NCBI GenBank assembly: GCA_965371445.1
Contig: CBDUYN010000012.1
Coordinates: 10,878-74,877 of the forward strand
Length of the DNA stretch: 64,000 nucleotides
Origin: an uncultured bacterium
Lineage (GTDB): Bacteria > Acidobacteriota > Thermoanaerobaculia > Multivoradales > J023
Reading direction: 5' to 3'
Made by a program: the position numbers and the translations under genes. The notes under the pieces were generated by a model. The model was not told the origin of the DNA, did no database searches, and saw only the letters and a list, made by a program, of their open reading frames with translations. Below are positions 29,183 to 56,106 of this stretch, piece by piece. Position 1 is the stretch's first letter; each line of letters begins with the position of its first letter.

Positions 29183-29216
29183 CCGAAACTGGGAAAAACC
29201 GCAGACTCCGAAGACT

Positions 29217-30070: not shown

Positions 30071-30093
30071 CCCAACCAGACAGGAGAGCCCGA

Positions 30094-31539: not shown

Positions 31540-31593
31540 CCGGGCATCCTGAACAGCTGTGAACCATCATCAACCAACCAACCGGAAAGAACC

Positions 31594-40353: not shown

Positions 40354-40440
40354 TGCTGGTCTCCTGGGTGTAGGTCTTGAAGCTGGCCGGAGGGTCGAAG
40401 GGCCAGGGAAGAGAGTATTGCGGAATCACTGTAACGGAAA

Positions 40441-40463
40441 AATGAGACCTTGGTCCTATGGCG
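40441..40463. promoter_or_regulatory. Conserved 19-bp motif AATGAGACCTTGGTCCTAT with palindromic arms (GGACC/GGTCC-like), upstream of the orphan module gene C''
   Basis: Near-identical copy (AATGGGACCTTGGTCCTAC) at 51362-51380, upstream of the single-domain response-regulator gene. A degenerate relative (GACCAAAGTCCTATGG) at 54242-54257 in the divergent DUF4136 / module-2 promoter region. Confidence 0.3.
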
Positions 40464-43400
40464 GGCCCAATTCCTCGAACGACGCCTCGACAAGCGTCAG
40501 CCGTAGCCGCACGGGCATCCCGGCCGCCGCTTCGAGCCGCTGGCGGGCGGTTTCGAACCTCTCCGGATCGAGCTCTTCGTCAGTGTAGATCGTCCCCTCG
40601 ACCACCAGCTCGTCGCCCCAGCTTTGCACCGAGAGATTCTCGACTCGCAGCTCCTGGTCGGCACGTCGCAACTGCGAGAGGATCAACGCCTCCAGACGGT
40701 GGGTCTGGATCGAGGTTCGTGTCTGAAAGCCCAGGGGGATGGCGACGAGGACGATCGCCACGGCCGCCCACAGGATGGCGCGCCGCGCCGCCCGGTCGCG
40801 CCCCGTACGGGACGGACGGAAGCCGAGCAGCAAGAAGATGAGAGCGCCGACCAGGACGATGCCGGCGAAGTTGGTGAGGAAGAGCAGCAAGGCGCCGCCG
40901 CCCAGGCGGAAGTTGGACGAGCCCAGGCCCCAGCCGGCGACGCAGAGCGGCGGCACCAGGGCGACGCTGATCGCCACCCCGGGCAAGGCCGCCGCCACCG
41001 ACTTGCGGCTGACTCCGTAGGCCGCCGCCGCCCCGGCCATCACCGCCACCAGGAGGTCGAGGAGGCTCGGCTCGCCGCGCGCCAGCATCTCGTGCGTCGG
41101 TGGACGCGGCGGTAAGAGCAGCGCCGAGGCCGTCCCCACGGCGAGGGCCACCGCGACCCCCTTGAAGGCGGAGGAGGCACCGCGGCGGATCAGCCGTACG
41201 TTGCCCTGGACGATGCCTTGTCCCACGGCGAGGATCGGGCTCATGAGCGGCGCCACCAGCATCGCGCCGATGATGACCGCGCCGCTGTCCAAGATGAGCC
41301 CCAACGAGGCGATGGCCGAGGCCAGGAAGATCAGGACGTAGTAGTCGACGCCGGCCCGCGCCGACTGGCGCATCTGCGCGAAGACCTCGGAGCGCTCGCG
41401 GACCGAGAGCGTCGGCAGTGGGCTCGAGACGAGCTCCCAGAGCCGACGCAACCAGTATCCCGAGACCCGCTCCGCCCTCTTGACGACGACGGTCGCCGCT
41501 TCCCGTCCCGCGGCGACTTCGGCCGGCAATCCGCCGAGGACCGTGCGCTGGAGGAGCCGGTCGACCGAAGCGCCGAGGAGCAGGACGTCGGTCCCCGCGG
41601 CCGAGTGAAGGATGCCCTGGGCGGCGTCGACGGCATCGACGACGAGGGGTTCCGCGGGCCCCGGCCGTGCCGTGCGGGTCTTCGCCACCGCCTCCCGGGC
41701 TTCTCGCTCCGCGCCCCGGGCGTCGACTCCGAGCACCGTGAGCCGGGCGTCGTAGACGGCGGCGAGGGCCTCGCCGAGCTCGAGGGCGACCGGGGCGTGA
41801 GGTCCGCCGGCCGTCGCCACCATCACCTCTTCGGCGGTGTCCGGCAGCAGGGAGTGGAGCACTGCCACGCTACGATGCGTCGCCGGGAAGACCTCCTCGA
41901 CCACGGCCTCGTGCTCGCCCTCGACTCCCGCGGCCGGCCAGCCCAGGAGGAGGAAGTCGACCCGGTTCTCGGCCGCGGTGGCGAGAATGCCCGCGTTCGG
42001 CGACGGCGCGATGCGCACCAGCGGACGGACCGGCGTTTCGTCTTTCCGCGCGCTCCCGATCAGCTTCTCGAGGTCTTGCCACACCTCGGCGGCCGTTTCG
42101 CGGATCTCGTCGAGCGGTACTTTCTCGTCGAGCGGTACGACCTGCAGCACCAGGAGCTCACCGCCGCGCGAACGCGCCAGGGCCGTCCCGAGCCGGATCA
42201 GCGACGCGGTCGCCGCCGGCTCGCCGCCGACGCTCGCCAGGACCCGATAGACCTCCGGCTCGTCCGGGTCGACCTCGCCACGGCCGCCGCGGTCGACCAG
42301 GTACGTCCGCTGATGGAGCGCCACCACGCGATGGCGTGCGTAGGTCCAGAAGACGAGGCCGCCCAGAAGCCCCCAGCCGAGTCCCAGCGCGAGGCTCGTC
42401 CGGGGCAGGATGAGCGCGAAGAAAACGGCGCTCGCCGCCGCCAGCCCCGGCACTAGCGGATGGAGCGGCAACCGAGGACGCCGGCCGGACGACAGCTCCC
42501 CGGCCGGACGACGGAGATGGGGCCAGAGAACCAGGAAGCCTGTCAACAGGGCGAGGAAGCTGGCGACGCCGGCGAGGTCCAGCCGGGGCAAGGCCGTGCA
42601 AAGGGCCGCGAACAGAAAGAAGAAGAAGAGCGGTCGCCGCAACGCGCCAAGCCCCTCGAGCGAGACCAGCCACCGCGGCAGGAGGCCGTCGCGGGCCATG
42701 GCCCGCACGACCCGTACGCCGCGTTCCAGGGCGCGCTGGAGGCCGAGCCCGCAGAGCAGGACCGTGGTGACGTTCAGCAAGAGCACCAGGCGGTTTTCGT
42801 CCCACGAGACCTGGGAGAGGAAGCTTTCCCGGTCGGTCAGGATCTCCGAGTGGCGCAGGACGAGGAAAGCCGCCGGCGCTCCCAGCAGAGCGACCGGAAG
42901 CCAGGCCACCAGCAACGCCCGAGGGAGTGTCTTCGAGGGCTGCCGGAGCTGTCCGCGCAGATCGAGGATCAGCTCAAGACCCCAGAGCCCGGCCCCCAGG
43001 AGCGCGACGCTCGCCAGCCAGTGGCGTTGGGAGTCGACGTCGATCTCCATGCCGAGGTTCGACGCCGGGCGGGTGAACCCCCATGCCGTCATCGCGGCCA
43101 GCGCGACGAGCGCTCCCCAGAGGAGGATCGCCTGCCGGCGCCAGCTGCGGCGGAAGCTGAGGAGATTGTGGAGCGTGAAACCCCCCAGGACCGCGAGCGC
43201 CAGCACTCCGGTTTCGTACCGTGCCCCGAAGAGCAGCTGGAAACCGACTTCGAGACGGTAAGCGACGCCCCAGGCGAGAAGCGCCGTCACCGTCGAGTAG
43301 CCGCCGAGGAGCAACCAGCCGGCGAAGAAGAGCCCTTTCGCCGAGCCGCTGGCGCGAGCGACCTTGTAGACGCTGGCGCTGCCGTGTAGCTCGCAAGAGC

Positions 43401-43593
43401 GCTCGGCGTAGCCCAGGAGAAGCGGCAGGTAGAGGAGCCCGGCGAGGAGAAAGGCGAACGGCGCCTCGTCGCCGGAGAGGCGCAAGACCTCGCCGCTCAC
43501 CACCAGGACGCCCAGCGGGACGCTGACCGACAGGCCGGCCGCCGTCGCGGCCGGCAGGCCGAGAACCCGGCTGAAGTCGACAGCGGGTCTCAT
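40456..43593 (-). CDS. Multidomain membrane protein: APC-family amino-acid-permease-like N-terminal domain, tandem universal-stress-protein (UspA) domains, and a C-terminal DUF389 membrane domain
   Basis: Start taken at MRPAVDF (ATG at 43593). 12-TM permease-like N-terminal part. Two Usp-like alpha/beta segments (ATASLIRLGTALARSRGGELLVLQVV...; EVMVATAGGPHAPVALELGEALAAVYDARLTVLGV...). DUF389-like C-terminal part (VDYYVLIFLASAIASLGLILDSGAVIIGAMLVAPLMSPILAVGQGIVQG...). Confidence 0.6.
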   Translation of the reverse strand: MRPAVDFSRVLGLPAATAAGLSVSVPLGVLVVSGEVLRLSGDEAPFAFLLAGLLYLPLLLGYAERSCELHGSASVYKVARASGSAKGLFFAGWLLLGGYSTVTALLAWGVAYRLEVGFQLLFGARYETGVLALAVLGGFTLHNLLSFRRSWRRQAILLWGALVALAAMTAWGFTRPASNLGMEIDVDSQRHWLASVALLGAGLWGLELILDLRGQLRQPSKTLPRALLVAWLPVALLGAPAAFLVLRHSEILTDRESFLSQVSWDENRLVLLLNVTTVLLCGLGLQRALERGVRVVRAMARDGLLPRWLVSLEGLGALRRPLFFFFLFAALCTALPRLDLAGVASFLALLTGFLVLWPHLRRPAGELSSGRRPRLPLHPLVPGLAAASAVFFALILPRTSLALGLGWGLLGGLVFWTYARHRVVALHQRTYLVDRGGRGEVDPDEPEVYRVLASVGGEPAATASLIRLGTALARSRGGELLVLQVVPLDEKVPLDEIRETAAEVWQDLEKLIGSARKDETPVRPLVRIAPSPNAGILATAAENRVDFLLLGWPAAGVEGEHEAVVEEVFPATHRSVAVLHSLLPDTAEEVMVATAGGPHAPVALELGEALAAVYDARLTVLGVDARGAEREAREAVAKTRTARPGPAEPLVVDAVDAAQGILHSAAGTDVLLLGASVDRLLQRTVLGGLPAEVAAGREAATVVVKRAERVSGYWLRRLWELVSSPLPTLSVRERSEVFAQMRQSARAGVDYYVLIFLASAIASLGLILDSGAVIIGAMLVAPLMSPILAVGQGIVQGNVRLIRRGASSAFKGVAVALAVGTASALLLPPRPPTHEMLARGEPSLLDLLVAVMAGAAAAYGVSRKSVAAALPGVAISVALVPPLCVAGWGLGSSNFRLGGGALLLFLTNFAGIVLVGALIFLLLGFRPSRTGRDRAARRAILWAAVAIVLVAIPLGFQTRTSIQTHRLEALILSQLRRADQELRVENLSVQSWGDELVVEGTIYTDEELDPERFETARQRLEAAAGMPVRLRLTLVEASFEELGPP

Positions 43594-43612
43594 CCCGTCG
43601 GCCGCTTTCTCC

Positions 43613-44470
43613 CTAGAACGCGAGGCGGGCGTAGAGCTGGAAGCCGCTGATACCGTACTCGACGCTGCCCCGGAACCGCTTCTTGTCGGTGTCGACGTCG
43701 TACTGCAGCGAGCTAAAGGAGAAGCCAAACCCGAAATGCTCGGTCGTCCGGTGCTCCAGGGCCGCGTTCAAGTCGATGGTCTCGCCGGAGATGTCGTCGA
43801 CGGTCACCGCGGTGATGATCCGGGCTCCGGCTTTGAAGACGAACTTGTGCGGCATGGCGTAGCGCAACGCGATGCCCACGAGCGGCACCGGAGCGTCGAC
43901 GCTGGCGCCTTGCTCGATCAAGCCGATGTCGGTGTTGGCGGCTCTCAGCCTGGCGTCTATGGTCAGGAACGAGACCCCGCCGGCCGAGACCCCGAAGGCC
44001 AGCTTCTCTTTCAAGACCACCCACCAGATCCAGGAAAACTCGAAGACCTCGCTCTTGAACTCGCCTTCGACGTCGACGTTGATCGGGAAGGTCCGGTCGC
44101 CGAATTGGATCTCGCGCGTCAGGGTCGTTGACGCGGAGCGCGACAGCGAGAAATAGCCGAAGTTGAGCTGGTGACGGGGCCGGATGCGCCATTCGAGGCC
44201 CAGGCGGAAGAGGGTGTCGGAGTCCTTGAGGCCGATCTCGTTCTCGAAGTCGAAGCGGTCGCCGAGGCCGAGGTCGATCTTCGAGTCGACGCGGGCCTTG
44301 GTGTTGAGCGTCGTGTAGAAGCCCCCCAGGGTGATCGCGAAGCGGTCGAGGGTCGGGTGGTCGAGGTGCTCGTCACCGGCGAGGACCGGCTGGGCGCAGA
44401 GGCCGGCGAGCAAAGCGACGGCTGCCAGCCCGGCGAGACGTGGGAAGCGGTGTGCAGGCGTTCGGGACAT
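43613..44470 (-). CDS. Outer-membrane beta-barrel protein of unknown function
   Basis: Signal peptide (AGLAAVALLAGLCAQPVLA), alternating beta-strand pattern, C-terminal ...GISGFQLYARLAF. Confidence 0.55.
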   Translation of the reverse strand: MSRTPAHRFPRLAGLAAVALLAGLCAQPVLAGDEHLDHPTLDRFAITLGGFYTTLNTKARVDSKIDLGLGDRFDFENEIGLKDSDTLFRLGLEWRIRPRHQLNFGYFSLSRSASTTLTREIQFGDRTFPINVDVEGEFKSEVFEFSWIWWVVLKEKLAFGVSAGGVSFLTIDARLRAANTDIGLIEQGASVDAPVPLVGIALRYAMPHKFVFKAGARIITAVTVDDISGETIDLNAALEHRTTEHFGFGFSFSSLQYDVDTDKKRFRGSVEYGISGFQLYARLAF

Positions 44471-44550
44471 CGTCGTTCCTTTCTGGACGGACGGCGGCGA
44501 CCACTGGAGGATGAGCGGTCCCCGGGTAAGTCGGAGTAGCGGCTATCCTA

Positions 44551-46482
44551 TCAGCGCGGAGTCGGGATGTGATCCGGTGTGTACCAGATCGGTGACGTAT
44601 AGGCCCTTTCCTGGGTCGTCATCGGCACCTCCCGGCCCGTCTCGACACCGAAGCGCACCGCCTCGTAGGCCGTCCACCGCGGGGTCGGGATCTCGAGGAC
44701 CCGGGCGTAGTAGAAAGCCCGCCGGCCCGCGTCGAAGTCCGGATCCTGCCAGACCGTGATGAGCTCGGGATCGCCGATGGTGTTGGTCCAGGTGGCGTTC
44801 GCGACGTCGACCGTGTTGCCGACCGGCTCGCGGCAACGGCCGTCACTCCCGACGGTGCGGCCGTCCGAGACCGCGACGTCGTAGATTTTCTCCTGGAGCT
44901 TGCCGGCATCGTCGAGCCAGCCCTTGACGACCTGGATGCGGTCGAGGTTGGCTCCGAAGGGATCTTTCAACGCGGCGACGAGAAAGCTCGGTGCCGCCCC
45001 GTCGGGCGCCTTGGACAGGTCGCCGCCCATGGGGACGCCCCTCGTATAGCCGATCGCGCCCGGGTTCCTGGTCTTGGCGTCGGCGGCCTCGAACTCCCAG
45101 CCGCCGAAGAAGCGAACCATCATCCGCGAGCCGGTCGTGGCATAGGTTTCCCGGCGGGCCATGGCGTCGAAGAGGGCTTCGCGGGTGTTCTCGCGCGCCC
45201 AGACGGCGGCGTAGCCCGAAGCGGCCTGTTGCCAGCCCATGAGCTGCATCCCGTTGCTCGCCATGACCGGATGCTCCATTCGCTCGGGGCTCGGCTCCGA
45301 GCCCGAGTGCTTGCCGAAGAAGTTCTCTTCCTCGGCGCTCGCCAGACTGGTATGACTGTCGGTCGAACCGATCAACCCGAACTTGAAGGGGTTCGTGCCG
45401 AGCTCGTCTTCGAGCCGTAGGCCGAGCTTCAAGGCGGACCGGACGTACTCGTACTGCAACATGTCGTCCTCTTTCGGCTCGCTGAAGTTGAGGTTGGAGA
45501 CATCCCAGGTTTCGTAGTCGGCGAACTCGTCGTTCGGCGACAGGAAGGGATGGGCCTCGCCGTCGCCCTTGATCTGAGTCGCTTCGACCAGCGGCTCCCA
45601 GCGCTGACGGCGCTCGGCATAATCCTGGTCGAGCGGCTCTCCACCCAGGGTCTCGACGGAAAACATCATGCCGTTCGAGAGGTTGCCGTTGTGGGGAATG
45701 GCGAGGACCTGGCCGCCGGTCTTCTCTTCGTATTCAGCAAGGGCTGTCCATAGGTCTTCCGGATCGATGCTGTCCGTGGCGGTGTAGGGGATGATACGGG
45801 AGGCCTTGTCGCCGTCGTCGCGGAAGATGACGACGCGATGCATGTTGTTTCCCGGCGGCGCCAGCGACGTCCATTCGTAGCCGATGAACGCCGTGAACCG
45901 ACCGGGCTCGTTGTAGCGTTCGGCGGCATCGACGACGTTGTCCCAGACCGGCCGCATGATCTTCGGATCGTTCGGTGCCCAGGGGAACTCGCCGCGGGAG
46001 AAAAGATCGATCATCTCCAGAGCCGCCTTGACCGCGGACTGCCCACCTTCGTTGATCATCTTATTCCAGCGCCGTCCCTCCTCGGAGCCCAGGAGCAGGG
46101 GGTCGGCTCCCAGGAGCATAGGAAAAAACCCCATCGCGTCGGAGTGATCCGCGACCACGAGGAAATCCAGAGGTCGCGAAAGCTTGGCCCGTACTCCGGT
46201 TGAGGAGACGACTTCCTCACCGCGAGCGAAACGGTAAGCCTCGTTGAGACCGAGACGGTTCCCGAAGGCACCGGCGTCCATCGACAGCGCGGTGTGGAGA
46301 TGCGTGTCACCCCAGAAGACCTGTGTCGGGAACGATCGGCCGGCATAGGGCGAGAAGTTCTTCGAACCGAACGCGGCCTCGACGTCCTTGGGATCGGTGG
46401 GGAAGTCTTGAGCCCAGGCACTCAGGCTTATCGCGATTGTCAAGAGGCAGGTCAACGTAGCTTGGAAAGCGGTGCTTCTCAT
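44551..46482 (-). CDS. DUF3604-family secreted protein (putative metal-dependent hydrolase), paralogue 1
   Basis: 643 aa with signal peptide. The family-typical N-terminal motif (FWGDTHLHTALSMDAGAFG...RPLDFLVVADHSD) is recalled from memory, not checked. 60-65% identical to the adjacent paralogue. Confidence 0.55.
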   Translation of the reverse strand: MRSTAFQATLTCLLTIAISLSAWAQDFPTDPKDVEAAFGSKNFSPYAGRSFPTQVFWGDTHLHTALSMDAGAFGNRLGLNEAYRFARGEEVVSSTGVRAKLSRPLDFLVVADHSDAMGFFPMLLGADPLLLGSEEGRRWNKMINEGGQSAVKAALEMIDLFSRGEFPWAPNDPKIMRPVWDNVVDAAERYNEPGRFTAFIGYEWTSLAPPGNNMHRVVIFRDDGDKASRIIPYTATDSIDPEDLWTALAEYEEKTGGQVLAIPHNGNLSNGMMFSVETLGGEPLDQDYAERRQRWEPLVEATQIKGDGEAHPFLSPNDEFADYETWDVSNLNFSEPKEDDMLQYEYVRSALKLGLRLEDELGTNPFKFGLIGSTDSHTSLASAEEENFFGKHSGSEPSPERMEHPVMASNGMQLMGWQQAASGYAAVWARENTREALFDAMARRETYATTGSRMMVRFFGGWEFEAADAKTRNPGAIGYTRGVPMGGDLSKAPDGAAPSFLVAALKDPFGANLDRIQVVKGWLDDAGKLQEKIYDVAVSDGRTVGSDGRCREPVGNTVDVANATWTNTIGDPELITVWQDPDFDAGRRAFYYARVLEIPTPRWTAYEAVRFGVETGREVPMTTQERAYTSPIWYTPDHIPTPR

Positions 46483-46511
46483 GTGGAATTCTCCTTACGT
46501 TTACAGGCTCT

Positions 46512-48422
46512 TCAGTCGCCGGGGGAGTACCAGATCGGCGACGTATAAGCTCGCTCCTGGAGGCTCTTCTCGACTTTGGCATCGAGCTCCAGGCCGAAGT
46601 ACTTGGCGTCGTAGGCCGACCAATGCGGCGTCGGGATCTCGATCACCCGGGCGTAGTAGAAGGCGCGCTCGTCCGGGTCGAAGTCCGGATCGGCCCAGGC
46701 GGCGGCCAAGAGCACGTCGCCGATCGTGTTGGTGTAGGTCGCGTTGGCGACGTCGACGGTGTTGCCGACCGGTGGCAGCTTGCCGTCGCTGCCGGCCTTG
46801 CGCTCGTCCGACCAGGCGACGTCGTAGACTTTTTCCTTCAGGTTGCCGTCGCCGTCGCGCCAGCCCTTGACGATTTGGATGCGGTCGAGGTTGGCTCCTT
46901 CAGGATCCCGCAGGGCCCAGACCAGGAAGGTCGCGGCTTTGCCGTCCGGCGCGCCCCGGAGGTCGCCGCCCATGGGGACGCCCTTGTCGTATCCGACCTT
47001 GGCCGGGCTAGGCCGCTCGATGTCGCTCTGGCTGAAGTCCCAGCCGCCGAAGAAACGCACGCTGATCCGCGAGCCGGTGGTGGCATAGGTCTCCTTGCGC
47101 TCCATCGCCTCGAAGATCCCGGCGCGCGTGTTCTCTCTCGCCCACACCGCCGCCAACCCACCGGCCACCTGCTCCCAGCCCCAGGTCGTGAGCTCGGGGT
47201 CGTCGGCCGACTCGATGACCATGTGGTCCGTCGCCCGATGCGTGTCGGGCTCGAGGCCGGAGTGCTTGCCAAAGAAGTTGTCCTCCTTGGCGGTGGCGAG
47301 ACCGGTGTGGCTGTCGGTCGAGCCGATCATGCCGAACTTGAACGGGTTCGCTCCGAGCTTCTCCTCCATCTCAAGTCCGAGCTTCAGTGCCGAGCGTCCA
47401 TACTCGTGCTGGAGCATCGAGTGCTCTTTGGCCTGGGTGCCGGGGAGATTGCCTTTGTCCCAGGTTCCGAAGTCGGCGAATTCGTCGTTGGGCGAGAGGG
47501 CTGGATGGGCCTCGCCGTCGCCCTTGATCTGGGTGACCTCGTAGAGAGGCTCCCACTTCATCCGGGCTTCGGCGTACTCGCGGGTGAGCGGCTCCCCGCC
47601 CATGGTCTCGACCGCGAACATGATGCCGTTCGAGAGGTTGCCGTTGTGGGGAATCGCCAGGACGTTGCCACCGGTCTTCTCTTCGTAGCCGGCCATGTAG
47701 GTCCAGAGGTCTTCGGGGTCCTCACTGTCGAAGAGCGAGAAGGGGACGACCTGGGTGGCGCGTTCGGCGTCGTCTTTGAAGATCACCACCCGGTGGAGGT
47801 TGTTGCCGGACGGCATCGACGTCCACTCGTAGCCGATGAAGGCCGTGAACAGACCCGGACGGTTGAGGCGATCGGCGATCTCGGCGGTGCCCTCCCACAT
47901 CGACCGCTTGAAGTCCTCGTTCTTGATCACCTCGTCAGCGGCGGCGACGGCCCGTATCGCTTGCATCGCCGCCTGGTAGATCACCTCGAACTCGCCTGTC
48001 TTCATCATGTCGTGCCAACGCCGGCCGGCGTCGGTCTGGAGCAAGAGGGGGTCCGAGGCACGAAGCGCCGGGGTCAGGCCGAGGAACTCGGCATGATCGG
48101 AGACGACGAGGAAATCCAGTGGACGCACGAGCTTCACCGCCATGCCGTTGTTGGCCGTCACCTCCTCGCCGCGGGCGAAGCGAAAGGCTTCCTCCGGGCC
48201 TACTCGGTAATTGATGAAGCCGGCGTCGAAGGAGTTCGAGGTGTGCAGATGCGTGTCGCCCCAGTAGACGTTCTTCGGGTACGTCTCGCCGGCGAAGGGC
48301 GAGTAGGACTTGGGCGGCGGCTTGACGTCGTCCGGCTGTGGAACCGCGTCCTGAGCGCTGACGGCGCCGGCGAGGAGCGTCGTCGTCAGGGTCAGGGCGA
48401 GCAGTAGGTGTCGGGTCTTCAT
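46512..48422 (-). CDS. DUF3604-family secreted protein, paralogue 2
   Basis: 636 aa with signal peptide, YWGDTHLHTSNSFDAGFINYR, and a collinear match to 44551..46482. Confidence 0.55.
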   Translation of the reverse strand: MKTRHLLLALTLTTTLLAGAVSAQDAVPQPDDVKPPPKSYSPFAGETYPKNVYWGDTHLHTSNSFDAGFINYRVGPEEAFRFARGEEVTANNGMAVKLVRPLDFLVVSDHAEFLGLTPALRASDPLLLQTDAGRRWHDMMKTGEFEVIYQAAMQAIRAVAAADEVIKNEDFKRSMWEGTAEIADRLNRPGLFTAFIGYEWTSMPSGNNLHRVVIFKDDAERATQVVPFSLFDSEDPEDLWTYMAGYEEKTGGNVLAIPHNGNLSNGIMFAVETMGGEPLTREYAEARMKWEPLYEVTQIKGDGEAHPALSPNDEFADFGTWDKGNLPGTQAKEHSMLQHEYGRSALKLGLEMEEKLGANPFKFGMIGSTDSHTGLATAKEDNFFGKHSGLEPDTHRATDHMVIESADDPELTTWGWEQVAGGLAAVWARENTRAGIFEAMERKETYATTGSRISVRFFGGWDFSQSDIERPSPAKVGYDKGVPMGGDLRGAPDGKAATFLVWALRDPEGANLDRIQIVKGWRDGDGNLKEKVYDVAWSDERKAGSDGKLPPVGNTVDVANATYTNTIGDVLLAAAWADPDFDPDERAFYYARVIEIPTPHWSAYDAKYFGLELDAKVEKSLQERAYTSPIWYSPGD

Positions 48423-48504
48423 GGGGATTCTCCGTTCGGATCGTTGAAGGTATGCGGTGCTCTTGCTGTGAGGCGATGGTACTCGCGGTAGAAGGTAGGC
48501 GGCG

Positions 48505-49965
48505 TCATTCTCGGAAGTCTGTGATATTGGCGGGTCGAGGATTCGGGTGATCCTTGAGTGAAGCGTAGTATTGCACGATCAGCGGCATGTACTTGCCGAC
48601 GACCCAGCTCGCCTCCGGACCGATGTCGGCCTCCTCACGTGGGTCTTGTTCGATATTGTAGACGTTCGGGTAGCCGTTCTTGCGGATCCGGCTTGCCTGG
48701 GTCCCGCCCACCGTCGTGAAGCCGTTGCCCGACGCAACGACGTCCTGCAAGTAGACGCGGAAGTGCCGCCAACGCACGGCAATCAGCTCGCCGTTGATGA
48801 AGGTGAGCAGGTGCTCGCGGTTGGAGTGGTCCTGCTTGCCAAGCAGCCAGTCGGACTGGTCGATGCCGTCGAAGGGACGGTCGGTCGGGACCGTGGCGCC
48901 GGCGAAGCTCGCCAGGGTCGGCAGGAAGTCCATGGTGGAGAACATGCCGTTGGTTACACCCGGCTTGATGTGACCGGGCCACTTGATCATGCCCGCAGTG
49001 CGGATCGAGCCTTCCCAGGCGCTGCCGAGCTCGCCCCGGAACGGCCCGCTGCTGCCGCCGTCGGGCCAGACCATGGTCTTCCAGGGTCCGTTGTCGCTCA
49101 TCCACACGACGATGGTGTTCTCCTCCACTCCGGCAGCGTTCAGTGCGGCCAGTACCCGGCCGGTGTTGTGGTCGAGCTCCATGACGCTGTCGCCGTAGTC
49201 GCCGATGTGGGAACGGCCGGCGAAGTCCTTGCTGGGGAGATTGGGCCAGTGGGGCCGGGTCCAGGAGACGAAGAGGAAGAAGGGATCCTCGGCCTTCGCC
49301 TGATCTTCGATGTAGGCGACGGCCCGATCGGCGATCTCGACGTCGATCGTCCGCCGCACGTCGAGCGTGTACTCGCGCACTGCTTCGATGGGTTTTCCCA
49401 CCTCGCCGCTCCAGATGTAGGAACGTTCGCTCTCCGTCGGTTCGTAGCCCGCGCGCCTCATGCTGCTGTTGAAGACGGCTTCGTCGGTCGAGTTGAGGAT
49501 ACCGAAGTAACTGTCAAAGCCCTGGCTGTGGGGATGGCTTTGCGCCTCGGTGCCCAGATGCCACTTCCCGAGGTAGGCCGTCGAATAGCCGACGTCCTTC
49601 AACACCTCCGCCATCGTCACTTCCTCGGCGGCCAGGGTGTTCGACGTCCCGCGCAGCACGACGAGAGACAGGCCGCTCCGGGTCGAGTACCGGCCCGTCA
49701 TGGTGGCGGCACGAGACGGCGTGCAACCGGGCTCGACGAGGAATTGCGTGAAGCGCAAGCCTTCGGTAGCGAGCTCATCGATGCGCGGAGTGGGCATGCC
49801 GCGCACTTCGCCGCCGCCGTAGGCACCGAGATCCCCGTAGCCGAGGTTGTCGGCCATCATGAAGACGATGTTGGGTCGGTCCGTGTCCGACTTCTCCTGG
49901 GCGGGCACAGACGTCGAAAGTGCGAGTAGGACGACCGAGATCGCCCAGATTCTTGCGCAGCTCAT
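48505..49965 (-). CDS. Arylsulfatase-family sulfatase
   Basis: Start at MSCARIWAISVVLLALS (ATG complement at 49965). CTPSRAATMTGR signature. GKWHLG. Confidence 0.8.
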   Translation of the reverse strand: MSCARIWAISVVLLALSTSVPAQEKSDTDRPNIVFMMADNLGYGDLGAYGGGEVRGMPTPRIDELATEGLRFTQFLVEPGCTPSRAATMTGRYSTRSGLSLVVLRGTSNTLAAEEVTMAEVLKDVGYSTAYLGKWHLGTEAQSHPHSQGFDSYFGILNSTDEAVFNSSMRRAGYEPTESERSYIWSGEVGKPIEAVREYTLDVRRTIDVEIADRAVAYIEDQAKAEDPFFLFVSWTRPHWPNLPSKDFAGRSHIGDYGDSVMELDHNTGRVLAALNAAGVEENTIVVWMSDNGPWKTMVWPDGGSSGPFRGELGSAWEGSIRTAGMIKWPGHIKPGVTNGMFSTMDFLPTLASFAGATVPTDRPFDGIDQSDWLLGKQDHSNREHLLTFINGELIAVRWRHFRVYLQDVVASGNGFTTVGGTQASRIRKNGYPNVYNIEQDPREEADIGPEASWVVGKYMPLIVQYYASLKDHPNPRPANITDFRE

Positions 49966-50008
49966 TGCTGAATCCTCTGGTTGGTTAGAGACGTTCCACC
50001 AGCTCTGG

Positions 50009-50920
50009 CTACCGGTTGGAAGGTTCGTAGGGGTCCGGCGTGCCTGGACGGATCGGTGGCTCCTTCTTGAAAGAAGCAACGTGCCGGACCAAATGCTCCC
50101 CTGCCGGCCAGCGGATCCACCCGCTGTAGTACCACCTCGAGTTGAGCGGATACTCCTCTCTCGGGTCGGTGTGCAGGTCGTAGATGAGCGGCACACCGTA
50201 GGACCTCGTCGGATCGGCGAACGCCCGGTCGGCCTCGACCTGCCGCTTCATGAAGTCGATCGAGCGTGAGGTGAACTCGCCGTCGATCAGGGCGCGCTCC
50301 TCCGTGTTGTAGACGCGGAGCTTCTTCGGCTGCTCCCCTTTTCGTCCCTCCATGATGTGCTCGGGCTGCGCGAAGGGGTGAGAGTCGGGCCGGTAGCGGG
50401 TGTCGTCGGGCCAGGCGCTCTCGTCGGAGGAGTTGGGGATGCCGTACCACTCGTCGAAACCCTGGTCGGTGGGATAGCGTCCCTCGGTGTGCCCCAGGTG
50501 CCATTTACCGAACATGCCGGTGGCGTAGCCGACGTCGGAGAACATCTCGGCCAGCGTGTATTCCCACTGGGTGAGCCCGTAGACCGGCGTCTCGATGGGG
50601 ATCGGCGCGTTGCCGGTCCGGATGGCGTAGCGGCCGGTCAGGATGGCGGCGCGGCTGGGCGTGCACTGCGCCTCGACGTTGAAGTTGAGCAGCCGCATGC
50701 CTTCGGCGGCGAGGGTGTCGATACGCGGCGTCGGCGCGCCGCGCAGGACGCCGCCACCGTAGACGCCGAGCTCGCCCCAGCCGAAGTTGTCCATGAAGAC
50801 GAGGACGACGTTGGGCTTCTCCTGTGCCGCGGCCGGGCTGTGCTTGTCTTGTGCCGCCGCCGGCAACGCGAGCGTCGCCAGCAAGGCAAGGAGGAGCAGA
50901 GGTGTGAAGGCTCTTCTCAT
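50009..50920 (-). pseudogene. Sulfatase with an in-frame internal deletion of roughly 180 aa
   Basis: N-terminal 230 aa are intact (CTPSRAAILTGR; GKWHLGHTEG). The sequence then jumps directly to the extreme C-terminal block (IYDLHTDPREEYPL...PIRPGTPDPYEPSNR). Compared with the 481-aa paralogue at 30094..31539, the central catalytic / metal-binding part is missing. Confidence 0.55.
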
Positions 50921-50930
50921 GATGGGGCTC

Positions 50931-51308
50931 CTAAATGGACCGGCGGACGGACGCGGGTAGCGCTTCCAGCAGGTCGGTTTCTTCGAAGGGCTTGGCGAGG
51001 AGAGCCAGCGCTCCCAGAGCCTTCGCCCGTTGCCGCGTCGTTTCTTCCAGGTGGGCGGTGATGAAGACGACGGGCGCCTTCGTCCCCTCCGCCGCCAGCC
51101 GCTCCGCGAGCTCGAAGCCGCTGGTCCGCGGGAGCTGGACGTCGAGCAGGAAGCACGAGGCGCCGTGCCGTCGATCGTCCTTCATCAGCTCTCCCGCCGA
51201 TCCGAAGGCCAGCGAGCTCACGCCGTGGGAACGCAGCAGCCGGCCGAGGGCGCGGCAGACGGAAGAGTCGTCGTCGACGATGCAGACGATGGATGCGGTG
51301 GAGGTCAT
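50931..51308 (-). CDS. Single-domain response regulator (CheY-like receiver)
   Basis: 125 aa with IVCIVDDDSSVCRALGRLL, phospho-acceptor D in CFLLDVQLP, and T/K motifs (VVFITAH; LAKPF). Confidence 0.75.
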   Translation of the reverse strand: MTSTASIVCIVDDDSSVCRALGRLLRSHGVSSLAFGSAGELMKDDRRHGASCFLLDVQLPRTSGFELAERLAAEGTKAPVVFITAHLEETTRQRAKALGALALLAKPFEETDLLEALPASVRRSI

Positions 51309-51361
51309 GGGGTTCGTGCTCTGCCAGGTACGCCCGGCAGTATTGAGCCCTCTTGGGAGGA

Positions 51362-51385
51362 GGGCAATGGGACCTTGGTCCTACT
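51362..51385. promoter_or_regulatory. Second copy of the AATGrGACCTTGGTCCTA motif
   Basis: aatgggaccttggtcctacttttgg. Lies in the 200-bp gap between the PAS kinase (ends 51508) and the receiver gene (starts 51308). Confidence 0.3.
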
Positions 51386-51507
51386 TTTGGAGAGCTTTAC
51401 GTCTCTACGCGATGGCATAGCCCTCCGGAAACCACGGGTTGACACCCGAGGTCCGACGACGCGAAGCGTCGTCACGAGACGTCCACTGGGGTTGTTCCTT
51501 CGAAGAG

Positions 51508-53082
51508 CTACCGTCCGACGGACGAATCTGCCGGCAACGTGAAGTGGAACGTGGCGCCTCGGTCGTCGTTCTCGTAGGCCCGGATCCGGCCCTGGTGCAC
51601 CTCGAGGATCGAGCGGACGATCGCGAGCCCCATCCCCATGCCGTCCGCCTTCGTGGTGTGGAACGGTTCAAAGAGCCGCTCCGGCTCCTGGCCGCCGAAG
51701 CCGGCCCCGAAGTCACGCACCGAGACACCGACTCCCTCCCCGGGCTCGTTCTCCGTGCGGAGGACGAGCCTCCGTTCCTCGGCCGGCAGGTCGGCCATGG
51801 CGTCGAAGCCATTCAAGATCAGGTTGAGAAGCACTTGCTGGAGCTGGACCCGGTCGCCGCATACCGGCGGCAGTCCCTCGTCGAGCTCGAGCTCCAAGTC
51901 GACCCCCTTCAAGAGGGCGTCACTGCGCAGCAAAGGCAGTACCTGACGGATCACCTCGTTCATTTCCAGAGGCTCCAGCTGCGGCTCGTGTTTCTGGAGC
52001 AAAGCGCGCAGCCGGCGAATGACCTCGGCCGCCCGCCGGTTGTCGGCGACGATGTCTCCGAGGATCTCGCCGATCTCCCCGAGGTCCGTTTCGCCGCTTT
52101 CCAGGAAGCGCTGGGCGGCGCGGGCGTTCGATCCGATGGCGGCGAGGGGCTGGTTGAGCTCGTGGGCGATGGCCGCGGTGAGCTCGCCCAGTGTGGCCTG
52201 GCGTCCGACGTGCGTCAGCTCGTCCCGGAGATGGCGCAGCTCCTCGTTCTTGCGCTTTCGCTCCGTGACGTCGGTTTGGATCCCGACGTAGTGGGTGACG
52301 GTGCCGTCGGCACTTCGTATCGGCGAGATCCGCAGCAGGTTCCAGAAGGGGGTCCCGTCTTTGCGGTAGTTGAGGATCTCGTCCTGAAACGTCTCGCCGT
52401 GGGCTATGGTGGCGCGGATCGCGGCCAGGGTCTCCGGATCGGTGTCGGGGCCCTGCAAGAACCGGCTGTTCTGTCCCAGGACCTCCGATGCCTCATAGCC
52501 GGTCAACCGGGTGAAGCTTTCGTTGACATAGCTGATGTACATGCCCTCGACTCGCGCGTCCGTGATGACGCAACCGGAATAGAGCGCCTCGATCGCCGCC
52601 GACTTCAGACGGATCTGCTCCTGCGTCCGCCGCAGGTCGGTCACGTCGCGTGCGGTTCCCCAGACTCGCAGAACCTTGCCGTCCTGGATCGTGCCTACGA
52701 AGTTGTTCAGAAAGATCCTTTCCGTTCCGTCCGCGGCCCGCTCGACGGTCTCCTCATCAGTCATCCGGTAACCCGAGCGAATGGTCTCGAGCAGGAAGGG
52801 AACGCTGGTGGGCAGGGACCGGGGGAAGAAGGTCTCCAGCCGCCATCCGAGGACGTCCTCGCGGGTCGTGGCGTAGGCGACGGCAAAGGTCTCGTTGGCC
52901 TCGACGATCCGGGCATGCTGGTAGAGGAGATCGACCTGCTCCATCTCCGGCAAGTCGATCGGGACGCCCTCCTCCATCTCGATGCACCAGATGGCCTCGG
53001 TGCTGTTGGCGACGAAGCTGCGGTAGCGCTCGTGGTTGATCGCGAGCAGCTCTTCGGCGGCGTCTGTGGATTCTCGACCCAT
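51508..53082 (-). CDS. Cytoplasmic multi-PAS sensor histidine kinase
   Basis: 524 aa with at least two PAS/PAC segments. HisKA H-box (HELNQPLAAIGSNARAAQRFL). HATPase N, G1 and G2 boxes (NLILNGFDAM...; VRDFGAGFG). Confidence 0.8.
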   Translation of the reverse strand: MGRESTDAAEELLAINHERYRSFVANSTEAIWCIEMEEGVPIDLPEMEQVDLLYQHARIVEANETFAVAYATTREDVLGWRLETFFPRSLPTSVPFLLETIRSGYRMTDEETVERAADGTERIFLNNFVGTIQDGKVLRVWGTARDVTDLRRTQEQIRLKSAAIEALYSGCVITDARVEGMYISYVNESFTRLTGYEASEVLGQNSRFLQGPDTDPETLAAIRATIAHGETFQDEILNYRKDGTPFWNLLRISPIRSADGTVTHYVGIQTDVTERKRKNEELRHLRDELTHVGRQATLGELTAAIAHELNQPLAAIGSNARAAQRFLESGETDLGEIGEILGDIVADNRRAAEVIRRLRALLQKHEPQLEPLEMNEVIRQVLPLLRSDALLKGVDLELELDEGLPPVCGDRVQLQQVLLNLILNGFDAMADLPAEERRLVLRTENEPGEGVGVSVRDFGAGFGGQEPERLFEPFHTTKADGMGMGLAIVRSILEVHQGRIRAYENDDRGATFHFTLPADSSVGR

Positions 53083-53089
53083 GATCCGG

Positions 53090-53737
53090 TCATTCGGAGT
53101 CGAGCCCGAGCTTCCCGGCCATGCGGACGAGCTCGGCCAGCGAGCCGGCCTGCATCTTCTCCATGAGCCGTCCGCGGTGGACTTTGACGGTTTTCTCGCT
53201 CACCCCCAGCCGGGCGCCGACCTGCTTGTTCAGGAGGCCGGTGACGACGAGCTCGAAGACCTGCCGCTCGCGGGTGGTCAGGGTGTCGAGGCGCTCGTCG
53301 AGAGCTTCGCGCTCGACGCGTTCGGCCCGGGTCCTGCGGCCGCGTTCGAGCGCCTCGCCGACGGCGGCGAGGAAGCGTTCGTCATCGACGGGCTTCTCCA
53401 GGAACTCGGTGGCGCCGGCCTTCATCGCGGCGACCGTCGAGGGCACGTCGCCGTAGCCGGTAAGGAAGATGACGGGGAGGTCGCGACCTCTCCGGCGAAG
53501 CTCATGCTGGAGCTCCAGGCCGTTCGTCGACGGCATCCGAAGGTCGAGCACCAGGCACCCGGAGCGTCCGGCCGCCGGTGTGTCTAGGAAGGCCTCGGCC
53601 GACGGGTAGGTCTCGACGGCGAGCCCGGCGGAACGGACGAGCCGTGACAGGGCGCGCCTCACCGAGGCGTCGTCGTCGACGACGACGACGACGTCGTCAG
53701 CGGCCAGGGGCTCTCTCTCCGGTACGGCTTCCATCAA
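53090..53737 (-). CDS. NarL/FixJ-family response regulator (receiver plus LuxR-type HTH)
   Basis: VVVVDDDASVRRAL..., phospho-acceptor D in CLVLDLRMP, and HTH LTTRERQVFELVVTGLLNKQVGARLGVSEKTVKVHR. Confidence 0.85.
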   Translation of the reverse strand: MMEAVPEREPLAADDVVVVVDDDASVRRALSRLVRSAGLAVETYPSAEAFLDTPAAGRSGCLVLDLRMPSTNGLELQHELRRRGRDLPVIFLTGYGDVPSTVAAMKAGATEFLEKPVDDERFLAAVGEALERGRRTRAERVEREALDERLDTLTTRERQVFELVVTGLLNKQVGARLGVSEKTVKVHRGRLMEKMQAGSLAELVRMAGKLGLDSE

Positions 53738-53742
53738 GGTCC

Positions 53743-54222
53743 TTACGGCGCTTTCACCTCGGGGAAGCTCTTGAACATCTTCTTGACGACCTTGCGGACG
53801 ATGCTCTTGGCTTTGCGCGCCTTCTCGGGCTGCACGTCAGTCGCCTGGCCGCGCCAGACGAGCTGGCCCATCGACGCTTCGTAGACCTCGACGACCAGGG
53901 CGACGTAGAGGAAGGTCGGGTTCTTGCCGGCATGGGTGCGGACGTAGAGGTCGGCGGCGCCGTCGGAGCGCTGCCAGCCGCCCGCGGCGAAGTGGGCGTC
54001 GACCGTCGCGCGGATCTCCTTCTCGATCTCGTGGTTGGCGGCCGGCGTGCCCTTCTGCCAGGCGTAGGTGCGAAGGGGCGAGAAGTCGAGGCTGCCGTAG
54101 TATTTGACCTCGACGGTGAGCGCGGCGGCGGAGCCGGCCGCGAGGAGAGCGAGGGTGAGGAGGAGAAGCGTCTTCGTCTTCATGGCGTCGTAGAGTCTGG
54201 CTGGAATCGGCGCCCGGGTCAA
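53743..54222 (-). CDS. DUF4136-family lipoprotein, copy 2. Lies 5 bp upstream of the FixJ-type regulator gene on the same strand.
   Basis: Signal peptide (MKTKTLLLLTLALLAAGSAAA), YYGSLDFSPLRTYAW motif, C-terminal VRKVVKKMFKSFP. Confidence 0.6.
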   Translation of the reverse strand: MTRAPIPARLYDAMKTKTLLLLTLALLAAGSAAALTVEVKYYGSLDFSPLRTYAWQKGTPAANHEIEKEIRATVDAHFAAGGWQRSDGAADLYVRTHAGKNPTFLYVALVVEVYEASMGQLVWRGQATDVQPEKARKAKSIVRKVVKKMFKSFPEVKAP

Positions 54223-54349
54223 ATGGGGGGGAAGGCTACGACCAAAGTCCTATGGCACCGTCTCTTGCCGCACGGCATGATCGCCTTGCGATGTCTGCGA
54301 AGAAGGCGCAGAATGGACCGAACGAACTCAGACCTCGGAGGACGAGACC

Positions 54350-54766
54350 ATGAGACAACTACGCGGCCTTCTTGCCGTGCTGCTGATTCTGGCCCCCGGG
54401 CCGCTCCTGGCCGACGACCTGACCGGCGCGGAGAAGATCCTCTGCACGTCGGCGCAGGCGACGCTCTGCACCGCGGACGGGGAGTGCACCAGCGCGCCGC
54501 CCTGGGAGCTGAACATCCCCAACTTCATCTTGATCGACTTCGCCGCGAAAGAGCTCGGCACCACCGAAGCGAGCGGCGAGGCGCGCAAGACCGAGATCCG
54601 GAACGTGACCCGGGAGCACGGCCTGATCGTGCTCCAGGGCTACCAGGACGGCCGCGCCTTCAGCTTCGTCATCACCGAGAAGTCCGGCATGGCGACGATC
54701 GCCGTGGCCCGCGACGGGCTCACCGTCACGGTCTTCGGTCCCTGCACGCCGTCCCCCTCGAAGTAA
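54350..54766 (+). CDS. Module gene B', paralogue of 13084..13527
   Basis: See 13084..13527. Signal peptide, ILCTSAQATLCTADGECTSAPPWELNIP...GRAFSFVITEKSGMATIAVARDGLTVTVFGPCTP. Confidence 0.6.
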   Translation: MRQLRGLLAVLLILAPGPLLADDLTGAEKILCTSAQATLCTADGECTSAPPWELNIPNFILIDFAAKELGTTEASGEARKTEIRNVTREHGLIVLQGYQDGRAFSFVITEKSGMATIAVARDGLTVTVFGPCTPSPSK

Positions 54767-54786
54767 CGACAACCGGAGAGAACGCC

Positions 54787-55356
54787 ATGAAGAAGAACCT
54801 TTGGATCGCCTTGACGATCGCCGCCCTCTGCGTCTTCCCCAGCCTGGCGCAAGGCCAGGCCGTCGAGGAGCCTACGGGCCAGAAGACGCTTGCCGCCACG
54901 ATGAACGTCTACGTCTTCCCGACGGAAGGCCAGGGCACCGAGCAGCAGTCGAAAGACGAGGCCGAGTGCTACAGCTGGGCGGTGAAGAACACCGGCTCCG
55001 ATCCCTTCGAGCTCGGCAAGCGGGCCGAGCAGGCGCAGCAAGCCGCTGCGCAGCAAAAAGAGCAGGTCGCTGCGGCCGGACAAGGCGCGGGTGCCCAAGG
55101 CGCGGTGAAAGGCGCCGTGGTCGGCGCCCTGATCGGCGAGATCGCCAGCAACGACGCCGGCGAAGGCGCCGCCTGGGGCGCCGCCGCGGGGATGGTCGGG
55201 GCGCGGCGTAGGACCCGCAGGGCCAAGAGCCAGGCCAACCAGCAGATCGACCAGCAGGCCCAGCAGGTCCAGCAGGCGACGGCCGAGGACCTCGAGAACT
55301 TCAAGAAGGCCTTCAGCGTCTGCCTCGAAGCCAAGAAGTTCCTCGTCAAATTCTGA
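54787..55356 (+). CDS. Module gene A', glycine-zipper protein, paralogue of 12456..13025
   Basis: Signal peptide. KTLAATMNVYVFP...EAECYSWAV. GAVVGALIGEIASNDAGEGAAWGAAAGMVGARRR. QQIDQQAQQVQQATAEDLENFKKAFSVCLEAKKFLVKF. Confidence 0.65.
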   Translation: MKKNLWIALTIAALCVFPSLAQGQAVEEPTGQKTLAATMNVYVFPTEGQGTEQQSKDEAECYSWAVKNTGSDPFELGKRAEQAQQAAAQQKEQVAAAGQGAGAQGAVKGAVVGALIGEIASNDAGEGAAWGAAAGMVGARRRTRRAKSQANQQIDQQAQQVQQATAEDLENFKKAFSVCLEAKKFLVKF

Positions 55357-55387
55357 GCCCTGAACAAGTGAGAGGAAGGAGAAGCCC

Positions 55388-55978
55388 ATGAGGCTGAAAC
55401 CGGCTCTTTTTGCCGTCGTTTGTGTCCTGGTGGCCCTGGCGCCGCCGCTCGCCGCCCAAGCCCCGGAGAGGATCAAAGGGCGTGTGATCGACGCCGGTTC
55501 CTCGGTGCCGGGTCCGAACAGCGCCTTCTTCACCCTACACGTCGACGAGTACTCGACGGCCGCCGACGTCCAGGAGCTTGCCGCGCTCCTGGCCAAGGAA
55601 GGATCCAACGCGCTGCTCAAGAAGCTGCGCAAGATGGACCACGGGTACATCCGCATCGGCCGGAGCCTCGGCTATCCCGTCGCCGTCATCCGTTCGATCG
55701 AGACGCCGGAAGGACGCGTAATCCGCGCCGTCACCGACCGTCCGATCCAGATCTACGAGGTGATGCGGAGCCTGCGCACGGAGGATTACCCCTTCGGCGT
55801 GATCGAGATCCGGCTGCCCGCCGACGGCAAAGGCGAGGGGACGCTCATCGCCGCCGCACAGGTCGAGTACAACAAGGACGGAGTCATCGAGATCGAAAGC
55901 TTCGGGATCCAGCCTTTCCGGCTGATGAACGTCGAGGCGGAGAAGGTCAAGGAGAAGAAGAAGAAAAAGAAGGACTAG
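55388..55978 (+). CDS. Module gene D', paralogue of 16061..16546. This copy has a signal peptide and a poly-Lys tail.
   Basis: MRLKPALFAVVCVLVALAPPLAAQA. Conserved core with D. Ends KVKEKKKKKKD. Confidence 0.55.
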   Translation: MRLKPALFAVVCVLVALAPPLAAQAPERIKGRVIDAGSSVPGPNSAFFTLHVDEYSTAADVQELAALLAKEGSNALLKKLRKMDHGYIRIGRSLGYPVAVIRSIETPEGRVIRAVTDRPIQIYEVMRSLRTEDYPFGVIEIRLPADGKGEGTLIAAAQVEYNKDGVIEIESFGIQPFRLMNVEAEKVKEKKKKKKD

Positions 55979-56106
55979 CGACGCGGACGCCTCCGACCGA
56001 CGATGCCGGATCTGCTCCCGCCGACGCACCATCCACTCATAGCCGCGCAAGCTTGCTATGGGCTTCCATGTTTCCACACGCGAAAACCCAAGGAGCCCCC
56101 TCGACC

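Follow-up and report, generated by a model that had tools for sequence, protein, structure and literature searches.

A 16-bp inverted repeat, TAGGACC-NN-GGTCCTA, was found at four intergenic positions in a 64,000-nucleotide (nt) stretch of contig CBDUYN010000012.1 from an uncultured bacterium of the Acidobacteriota; this whole stretch is referred to as the window. Judged from sequence, the repeat is probably the activating operator through which a FixJ/StyR-type response regulator, the product of 53090–53737 on the minus strand, would drive four operons. Site, regulator and gene set are found again in many bacterial phyla.

In the proposed mechanism, the adjacent histidine kinase would presumably phosphorylate the regulator, and a dimer of the regulator would bind the 16-bp dyad T(A/G)GGACC-WW-GGTCC(C/T)A. 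From a dyad centre at about −43.5, abutting a weak −35 element, the dimer would recruit sigma-70 RNA polymerase in a class-II-type manner. The four units switched on would be a receiver-sulfatase-DUF3604-...-DUF389 operon (site 2), the gene termed C'' (site 1), an OEP-MFP-RND operon (site 4) and a B'-A'-D'-phosphatase-like operon (site 3). Expressed from the strongest site, the receiver-only protein would probably feed back on the phosphorelay as a phosphate sink or kinase inhibitor, giving negative feedback. For this role we assume an analogy with LovR- and FixT-type proteins, the small inhibitory partner being, we presume, reminiscent of FixT of the FixL/FixJ system.

Four dyad sites and their promoter register

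The window was searched with the pattern TAGGACCNNGGTCCTA, allowing up to two mismatches. Four sites were returned, at 20860, 40443, 51368 and 54237, where 0.07 would be expected, and none of 100 dinucleotide shuffles of the window reached four. All four are intergenic, and the next-best candidates, which have three to four mismatches, lie nearly all inside predicted coding open reading frames (ORFs). Each site has two arms of 7 bp that are separated by a 2-bp centre (7-2-7, 16 bp in total), and copies on the strand of the downstream gene read TAGGACC-AA-GGTC(T/C)CA. Site 2 (51368–51383, minus strand), which reads TAGGACCAAGGTCCCA on the gene strand, is the best of the four proposed operators, with a single mismatch to the perfect dyad. 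In site 1 (40443–40458, minus strand; gene-strand sequence TAGGACCAAGGTCTCA), gene 40456–43728 contributes its TAG stop codon as the first three bases. Site 3 (54237–54252, plus strand; TACGACCAAAGTCCTA) is a degenerate form in a divergent intergenic region, and site 4 (20860–20875, plus strand; TAGGACCCAGGTCGCA) lies ahead of the OEP-MFP-RND operon.

The original prediction had described two near-identical copies of a slightly longer motif in intergenic promoter regions, with inverted-repeat arms and a related third site. Direct reading confirms the near identity, with copy 1 (AATGAGACCTTGGTCCTA, 40441–40458) and copy 2 (AATGGGACCTTGGTCCTA) agreeing at 17 of 18 positions and the exact 13-mer GACCTTGGTCCTA present twice in the window, but copy 2 lies at 51366–51383 and not at 51362–51380, which is 3–4 nt too low. 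The intergenic placement was borne out, as copy 1 lies 85–90 bp upstream of the ATG at 40353 and copy 2 lies 60 bp upstream of the ATG at 51308, and the arms were recovered as the 7-2-7 dyad. The degenerate third copy (GACCAAAGTCCTATGG) exists as well, at 54240–54255 rather than 54242–54257. All three sites of the earlier set were thus found again, although the fourth, at 20860–20875, had been overlooked, and the gene after copy 2, which had been called a response-regulator gene, is present but encodes a receiver-only protein and not a DNA-binding regulator.

A repeat search around the sites gave just a repeat of GGTCGCATG at 20790, which is due to chance, and a weak inverted repeat (51359/51416). 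Outside the motif the flanks bear no likeness to one another, and the genes after sites 1 and 4 are unrelated, so the motif is not part of a duplicated segment; the unrelated flanks also argue that it is not a mobile repeat. No Rfam family was matched anywhere in the window. Sharing of upstream sequence through paralogy of the two downstream genes (787 and 804 residues) was considered and ruled out, the proteins being unrelated.

Exact matches to the 17-mer ATGRGACCTTGGTCCTA were then collected from 185,579 species genomes, giving at least 118 stretches, each locus spanning at most 8 kb. Taken as a bare number, this speaks against a functional site, as the naive chance estimate for the whole collection is ~140 and the count is not above it, and some matches are clearly coding or chance ones (L005/L054/L094, L001/L020/L048 and L043). 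The raw count is uninformative, and it is the structure of the hits that carries information. Among the matches listed, clustering by lineage is seen, with two to four per Sorangium genome, seven in Rokubacteria/Methylomirabilota and five in Thermoanaerobaculia; further listed matches come from Syntrophales, Verrucomicrobia, Steroidobacteraceae, Burkholderiales and Solirubrobacterales. Within the 874 kb of motif loci, 37 further sites with up to two mismatches were found where ~3 would be expected, and nearly all of them have a central AA/TT, which was not demanded by the search. Both half-sites are conserved in 41 unconstrained sites elsewhere, 38 of which have a T after the dyad.

The idea that the copies are chance matches or functionless relics of duplication or mobility can draw on the near-chance 17-mer count and on the paralogy of central module genes within the window. 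It is effectively refuted by the shuffles, by the further sites in the motif loci and by the promoter register, which is conserved across phyla; the unrelated flanks and downstream genes and the regulator association, likewise conserved, also speak against it.

As a separate observation, several exact 17-mers occur per Sorangium genome (loci L019, L040, L050, L056, L068, L071, L073, L074, L077, L106, L107 and L111, which are partly from Sorangium), and some downstream flanks in these loci are near-identical between species, which suggests a large conserved Myxococcota regulon.

The promoter register was read from a position matrix pooled over 107 non-redundant sites from other (GTDB) genomes that carry the exact 17-mer, the flank positions having been left free by the search. 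On the downstream side, G at position 19 (60%, binomial P = 7e-11), C at position 20 (54%, P = 2e-7), A at position 41 (54%, P = 2e-13) and T at position 45 (51%, P = 3e-14) stand out, whereas the opposite, upstream flank has no comparable signal and only a weak A/G preference at position 0. The pooled pattern is a −35-like TTGCnn that starts from the last T of the motif (TTGC occupying positions 17–20), a 17-nt spacer and a −10 of the form TAnnnT at positions 40–45. This register places the dyad centre near −43.5 and the dyad from about −51 to −36, which is an activator position.

Putative core promoters can be assigned to the window sites accordingly. At site 2, a weak promoter would lie at 51339–51367 (minus strand), with TTGCCC at 51362–51367 as −35, a 17-nt spacer and AATACT at 51339–51344 as −10, and transcription is predicted to start near 51332. 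Site 1 has the same offsets on the minus strand (40414–40442), with TTTTTC at 40437–40442 and AATACT at 40414–40419 as the presumed hexamers. The candidate promoter of site 3 (54253–54281, plus strand) has TGGCAC at 54253–54258 and CATGAT at 54276–54281 and points at gene 54350, and that of site 4 (20876–20905, plus strand) has TGGCTC at 20876–20881 as −35 and TAGAGT at 20900–20905 as −10. Both AATACT hexamers fall exactly at matrix positions 40–45; TAGAGT of site 4 is one nt further out. Weak core hexamers of this kind fit activator-dependent promoters. A terminator scan at the four sites found nothing. Directly after site 3, at 54253–54268 (plus strand), the sequence TGGCAC-N6-TTGC was also seen, which resembles a sigma-54 −24/−12 element with a spacing that is one nt too long.

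A motif lying directly at the −35 might instead be an extended −35 or upstream element of an alternative sigma factor of the extracytoplasmic function (ECF) type, or might be bound by transcription factors of an unrelated family, and the helix-turn-helix (HTH) of the regulator does score against Sigma70_r4 models, the folds being alike. This is very unlikely. Sigma elements are asymmetric, whereas every site conserves the two half-sites as a dyad, and the dyad is accompanied by a separate TTGC that resembles a −35, with a TAnnnT spaced 17 nt from it. No sigma/anti-sigma gene was found in the window or as a recurring gene in the loci, and the motif core agrees with the consensus that was measured for an HTH of the LuxR type. 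An ECF promoter would have an asymmetric GGAAC-like −35, a CGT-type −10 and a sigma/anti-sigma pair, and the sites do not conform to this description.

The adjacent regulator as the proposed binder

The regulator at 53090–53737 consists of a REC domain and a GerE-type HTH, the only such HTH detected in the window, and the predicted window proteins yielded neither a sigma factor nor any other DNA-binding regulator that could be recognised. When window proteins were compared with the motif loci by tblastn, full-length homologues of the regulator (46–58% identity, E ≤ 1e-47) were found in 22 of the 118 loci listed, ~20 of which also contain the kinase core and many of which contain a receiver-only gene. 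The co-occurrence has P ~3e-15 under an assumed background of 2%, which is our own estimate and one that we regard as generous. By their coordinates, at least 14 of the 22 have a site no more than ~250 bp from the gene for the regulator or the kinase, often directly after the two-component genes (L010, L011, L012, L016, L063 and L113), and in L010 and L011 the next gene after the site encodes a receiver-only protein, as is the case at window site 2.

The association also holds in the reciprocal direction. Two loci chosen by similarity of the regulator alone, L126 and L127, both carry the motif. One L126 site (TGGGACCATGGTCCTA, 17160–17175), followed by a −10 of TATAGT, stands ahead of an MFP-RND-OEP-receiver operon and so mirrors window site 4. 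The three closest retrievable relatives of C'' (57–65% identity) likewise have the motif upstream of a C-containing operon. In L120, TGGGACCAAGGTCCCA is followed by genes for a receiver, a sulfatase, a 292-residue protein, C and DUF389; in L119, TACGACCAAAGTCCAA lies between kinase and receiver genes; and in L121, TAGGACCAAAGTCCTA precedes a gene for a 199-residue protein and C. L119 and L120 encode a FixJ-type regulator too, but with a Reg_prop/Y_Y_Y kinase.

Over its full length the regulator is nearest to StyR (1yio, 5e-53) and FixJ (5xso, 9e-45), with far weaker matches to DevR (5e-16) and NarL (2e-16). The best match of the HTH alone is EL222 (E = 3e-15), and the recognition helices are near-identical: LGVSEKTVKVHRGRLMEKM in the regulator and LGLSEKTVKMHRGLVMEKL in EL222, or SEKTVKVHRG against SEKTVKMHRG. 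The corresponding helix starts of StyR (AEVTVKVHRH) and FixJ (SPRTVEVHRA) differ. In 25 motif-adjacent regulators the helix (S/A)EKTVKVHRG(R)VM is almost invariant, although overall identity is only ~50%.

The same correspondence is seen on the DNA side. The experimentally derived 12-bp consensus of EL222 is RGNCYWWRGNCY (PMC10521638), to which the motif core GGACCWWGGTCC fits exactly. Sites 1 and 2 agree with it at all 12 positions (GGACCTTGGTCC and AGACCTTGGTCC), site 3 at 11 and site 4 at 10. In E. coli, sigma-70 transcription from the luxI promoter is activated by an EL222 site that occupies the lux-box position, where it overlaps the −35 (PMC5001607). EL222 of Erythrobacter litoralis, whose C120 operator is TAGGTAGCCTTTAGTCCATG, resembles the window system in having a LOV-type sensor upstream in the signalling chain. 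It is a one-component protein in which LOV is fused to the HTH, whereas here the HTH is carried by a phospho-receiver regulator and the LOV-type domain, which has no photoactive cysteine, by a separate kinase; the window system is therefore not an EL222 orthologue. The natural 16-bp site here is moreover nearly perfect in its dyad symmetry, and its outer bases are defined (TA/TG...CA/TA).

Other response regulators of this type provide partial parallels. Among Pseudomonas systems (StyS/StyR and TodS/TodT), it is StyR that gives the best full-length structural match noted above. What we take to be the STY2 box of the promoter PstyA, ATAAACCATGGTTTAT, shares the 7-2-7 layout and the central ACC-WW-GGT with the motif, but its outer half-site bases differ. 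Dimers of phosphorylated StyR bind inverted repeats, and activation requires the high-affinity STY2 site at about −40 in PstyA (PMC2442086). StyR controls just one operon, for aromatic catabolism, with IHF and additional low-affinity sites, and no such arrangement was seen here. The FixL/FixJ system has a regulator of the same family, a FixL-type kinase core and sites with TA(A/G)G...C(T/C)TA ends. The rhizobial FixJ site at fixK, TAAGTAATTTCCCTTA, is a 16-bp imperfect dyad near −35 to −60, and systematic evolution of ligands by exponential enrichment (SELEX) gave GTAGTTTCCC or GTAMGTAG (PMC4999443). Except for their TA.G...C.TA ends, these sequences do not match the motif, in keeping with the different helix of FixJ; in addition, the sensor here is not a haem PAS domain and the targets are not fixK or nifA.

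The ACTU motif of CrbR (ErdR), a LuxR-type response regulator of Pseudomonas, has a GAC(C/T)-WW(R)-GTC core, as in TACGACTAAAGTCTAAA, and is required for activation (PMC5715377). Window site 3 closely resembles it, although ACTU lacks the GG and CC that flank GAC and GTC here, the cognate sensor CrbS is an SLC5-STAC hybrid kinase and the regulon serves acetate utilisation. The DosR/DevR box of Mycobacterium and the NarL heptamer pairs have a GGAC-N4-GTCC core at the same distance from the axis, in a 7-2-7 layout read by a NarL/LuxR-type HTH next to the −35. Their outer bases differ from those of the motif, and the similarity of DevR and NarL to the regulator is much weaker. DosS and DosT use GAF-haem sensors.

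These systems also bear on the direction of control. Phosphorylated StyR represses from some sites (PMC2442086), EL222 represses when its site lies between or downstream of the hexamers (PMC5001607), and in R. palustris unphosphorylated FixJ reportedly represses nif promoters (PMC13327599), so the regulator could bind and repress, or act both ways. We regard this as improbable, as the dyad lies wholly upstream of the −35 in a fixed register that matches the activating STY2 and lux-box positions, and the weak core promoters look activator-dependent.

Several observations, in addition to the raw 17-mer count, weigh against the assignment of the sites to the neighbouring regulator and its promoters. 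The regulator family is very large, with 7,734 matches at E ≤ 1e-30, and the true binder could be a paralogue that has this recognition helix and is encoded elsewhere in the genome; whether it is the neighbour or such a paralogue that binds is the main residual doubt. The hexamers at the window sites are weak, and a strict sigma-70 consensus scan called no promoter at any of the four, so the −35 and −10 assignments in the window derive from the pooled matrix. Site 3 has promoter geometry in the plus orientation only, toward B'-A'-D', and none toward the two-component operon, so autoregulation of that operon is not supported in the window; in other genomes the site does lie upstream of the regulator operon (L032, L044 and L086). 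Module 1 (11239–16546), which is paralogous to the other module, had no dyad site in the window search, and no motif was found at the distant C homologues of L122, L124 and L125 (43–48% identity), from which the wiring appears to be lineage- and copy-specific.

The doubt about the binder amounts to a rival explanation, namely that the sites are bound as operators by another EL222/FixJ-type HTH protein whose gene lies outside the window (a paralogous response regulator, or a one-component protein of the LOV-HTH type), with the neighbouring regulator as one of several that share a specificity. Consistent with it are the spread of the recognition helix over so large a family, the several exact sites per Sorangium genome with very diverse downstream genes and the variation of kinase sensor domains between lineages. 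We nevertheless consider it unlikely, since the regulator and kinase genes abut the site in the window and in many other loci, the regulator has the only GerE-type HTH in 64 kb and the loci of its closest homologues carry the motif. The proposal that the motif serves the adjacent FixJ-type regulator as operator and ties the unknown module to its two-component system, which was already part of the original prediction, is supported by five independent lines: the promoter register of 107 sites, the regulator in 22 of the 118 loci listed, the reciprocal loci, the relatives of C'' and the match between an EL222-like HTH and the consensus. The sites show the sequence features of operators of LuxR/FixJ-type response regulators that act as class-II-type activators, namely a REC and GerE regulator associated with the site, a dyad-symmetric site of 16–20 bp and a fixed position at about −40 by the sigma-70 −35, seen directly in the pooled matrix and by extension in the window.

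The paired kinase and a possible wider regulon

The histidine kinase gene lies at 51508–53082 on the minus strand and encodes an N-terminal PAS domain, a LOV-type PAS domain and a FixL-type kinase core (YF1 4gcz, 2e-78). The LOV-type domain (residues ~158–280) matches YtvA/YF1, phototropin, aureochrome and CagFbFP at 1e-25 to 1e-35. It reads GQNSRFLQG, the adduct cysteine of GXNCRFLQ being replaced by serine, and the pattern N-RFLQ...R...N...N...Q was read in its sequence, which was also aligned with YF1, as would be expected for a LOV-fold PAS domain. All of what we take to be the flavin-contact residues of LOV domains are present. Among the closest kinases of the same architecture, the cysteine is kept in P0242, P0243 and P0258 and lost in P0241 and P0245; nothing was found in L128, the short, low-GC and gapped contig of the cysteine-containing relative P0242. 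LOV domains that lack the cysteine can still signal through photoreduction of the flavin (PMC4682037). The signal here is probably redox, or light that acts on the flavin by photoreduction.

A LOV-type domain as a conserved feature of motif-adjacent kinases was considered and rejected, because only the kinase core is conserved elsewhere; the sensor is thus lineage-specific. A conserved output module is combined with interchangeable inputs. A second PAS histidine kinase, at 59878–61707 (minus strand), is 28% identical to the first and has no adjoining response-regulator gene among the ORFs examined.

More tentatively, the dyad may mark an undescribed regulon that spans many phyla and is a natural two-component counterpart of EL222. 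Such a regulon would combine a conserved REC-HTH regulator whose DNA specificity is EL222-like, always with a receiver-only protein, with interchangeable sensors (LOV domains with or without the cysteine, GAF-PAS and Y_Y_Y propellers) and with recurrent uncharacterised envelope and hydrolase genes (the Pfam-less C, DUF4136, DUF3313, patatin-Omp85, DUF3604, sulfatases and RND pumps); in the window its sensor would be a flavin domain without the canonical cysteine. No description of this dyad or regulon was found in the literature searched, coverage of which was incomplete. A low-oxygen motif of the Burkholderia lxa locus, considered as a possible relative, proved to be an unrelated Anr/FNR-type TGA-N6-TCA in the paper concerned.

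What is added to the known systems is a site that is identical across phyla in a fixed register, the tying of function-unknown families to one regulator and a LOV kinase without the cysteine. The proposed operator offers a testable regulatory handle on families without known function, namely C (787–925 residues), B/A/D, DUF4136 and DUF3604, which a single two-component system appears to co-induce along with secreted hydrolases and an RND pump. The specificity of EL222, which is used as an optogenetic tool and for which it has been measured, appears to be native to a widespread class of response regulators, by which regulons in uncultured phyla might be predicted from sequence alone. The kinase is a natural protein with a LOV domain that lacks the cysteine, and so a candidate for adduct-independent signalling of the kind shown in vitro (PMC4682037).

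Downstream genes and other features of the window

The first gene after site 2 (50931–51308, minus strand) encodes the single-domain receiver, which has 125 residues. In most related loci a receiver-only gene adjoins the regulator gene, and in L010, L011, L119 and L120 such a gene comes first after the site. In the window it is followed on the minus strand by further cargo (40456–50920), which comprises sulfatase ORFs, two DUF3604 genes, a gene for a 285-residue protein of unknown type and a gene for a 1090-residue permease-Usp-DUF389 fusion that ends at 40456. The overlapping sulfatase ORFs 48505–50196 and 50009–50920 (minus strand) are 41% identical over 201 residues, and the shorter, of 303 residues, spans only the N-terminal half of the Pfam model and may be a truncated paralogue or reflect a frameshift.

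The proposed target of site 1 is the module gene C'' (37990–40353, minus strand; 787 residues), the product of which is 45% identical to that of the gene for 925 residues at 13233–16010 (plus strand). Site 4 would serve genes for a TolC-like OEP, an HlyD-type MFP, an AcrB-type RND pump and a 236-residue ORF (20950–28247, plus strand). The first of these probably starts at GTG 20950, because the ATG at 20875 lies inside the operator; this GTG stands just ahead of a signal-peptide-like stretch. The candidate targets of site 3 are the genes for B' (138 residues), A' (136 residues), D' (196 residues) and an 859-residue protein of the iPGM/alkaline-phosphatase superfamily (54350–58637, plus strand). 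On the other side of this divergent region, a DUF4136 lipoprotein-like gene (53743–54222, minus strand; ATG likely at 54183) is the first of the DUF4136-regulator-kinase operon.

No Pfam match at E ≤ 1 was obtained for C, B', A' or D', and the C family, with at least 2,800 homologues, has no Pfam model. Families of the window are found beside the motif elsewhere too, among them sulfatases (seven loci listed), DUF3604 (L027 and L022), patatin-POTRA/Omp85 (L081 and L058) and DUF4136. D' stands beside the motif in L003 and L070, C in L025 and B' in L086, where it lies between the site and the regulator gene. Recurrent neighbours of the C family across loci L119–L125 are DUF4136, DUF3313, patatin-Omp85, DUF3604, sulfatases and SBP_bac_3-SLT, and in L122 the neighbours include phosphate-porin, PHO4 and PhoU-like genes.

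Some further features of the window were noted. Three plus-strand genes belong to families unusual for bacteria: a GH3-family protein of the acyl-acid amido synthetase type (8915–11242), a Cys_rich_FGFR repeat protein inside module 1 (11927–12403) and an ankyrin-repeat protein (28968–29834). Two minus-strand regions are defence- or toxin-antitoxin-like, one at 16554–20648, in which an AbiEii nucleotidyltransferase toxin stands beside a 1131-residue protein with a weak nSTAND3 NTPase match, and one at 7255–7906, with a HepT-like RNase and a small upstream ORF. The ~1.8 kb at 29834–31594 have a lower G+C content (~0.59) and contain no ORF that passes the codon-bias filter of the rough gene map.

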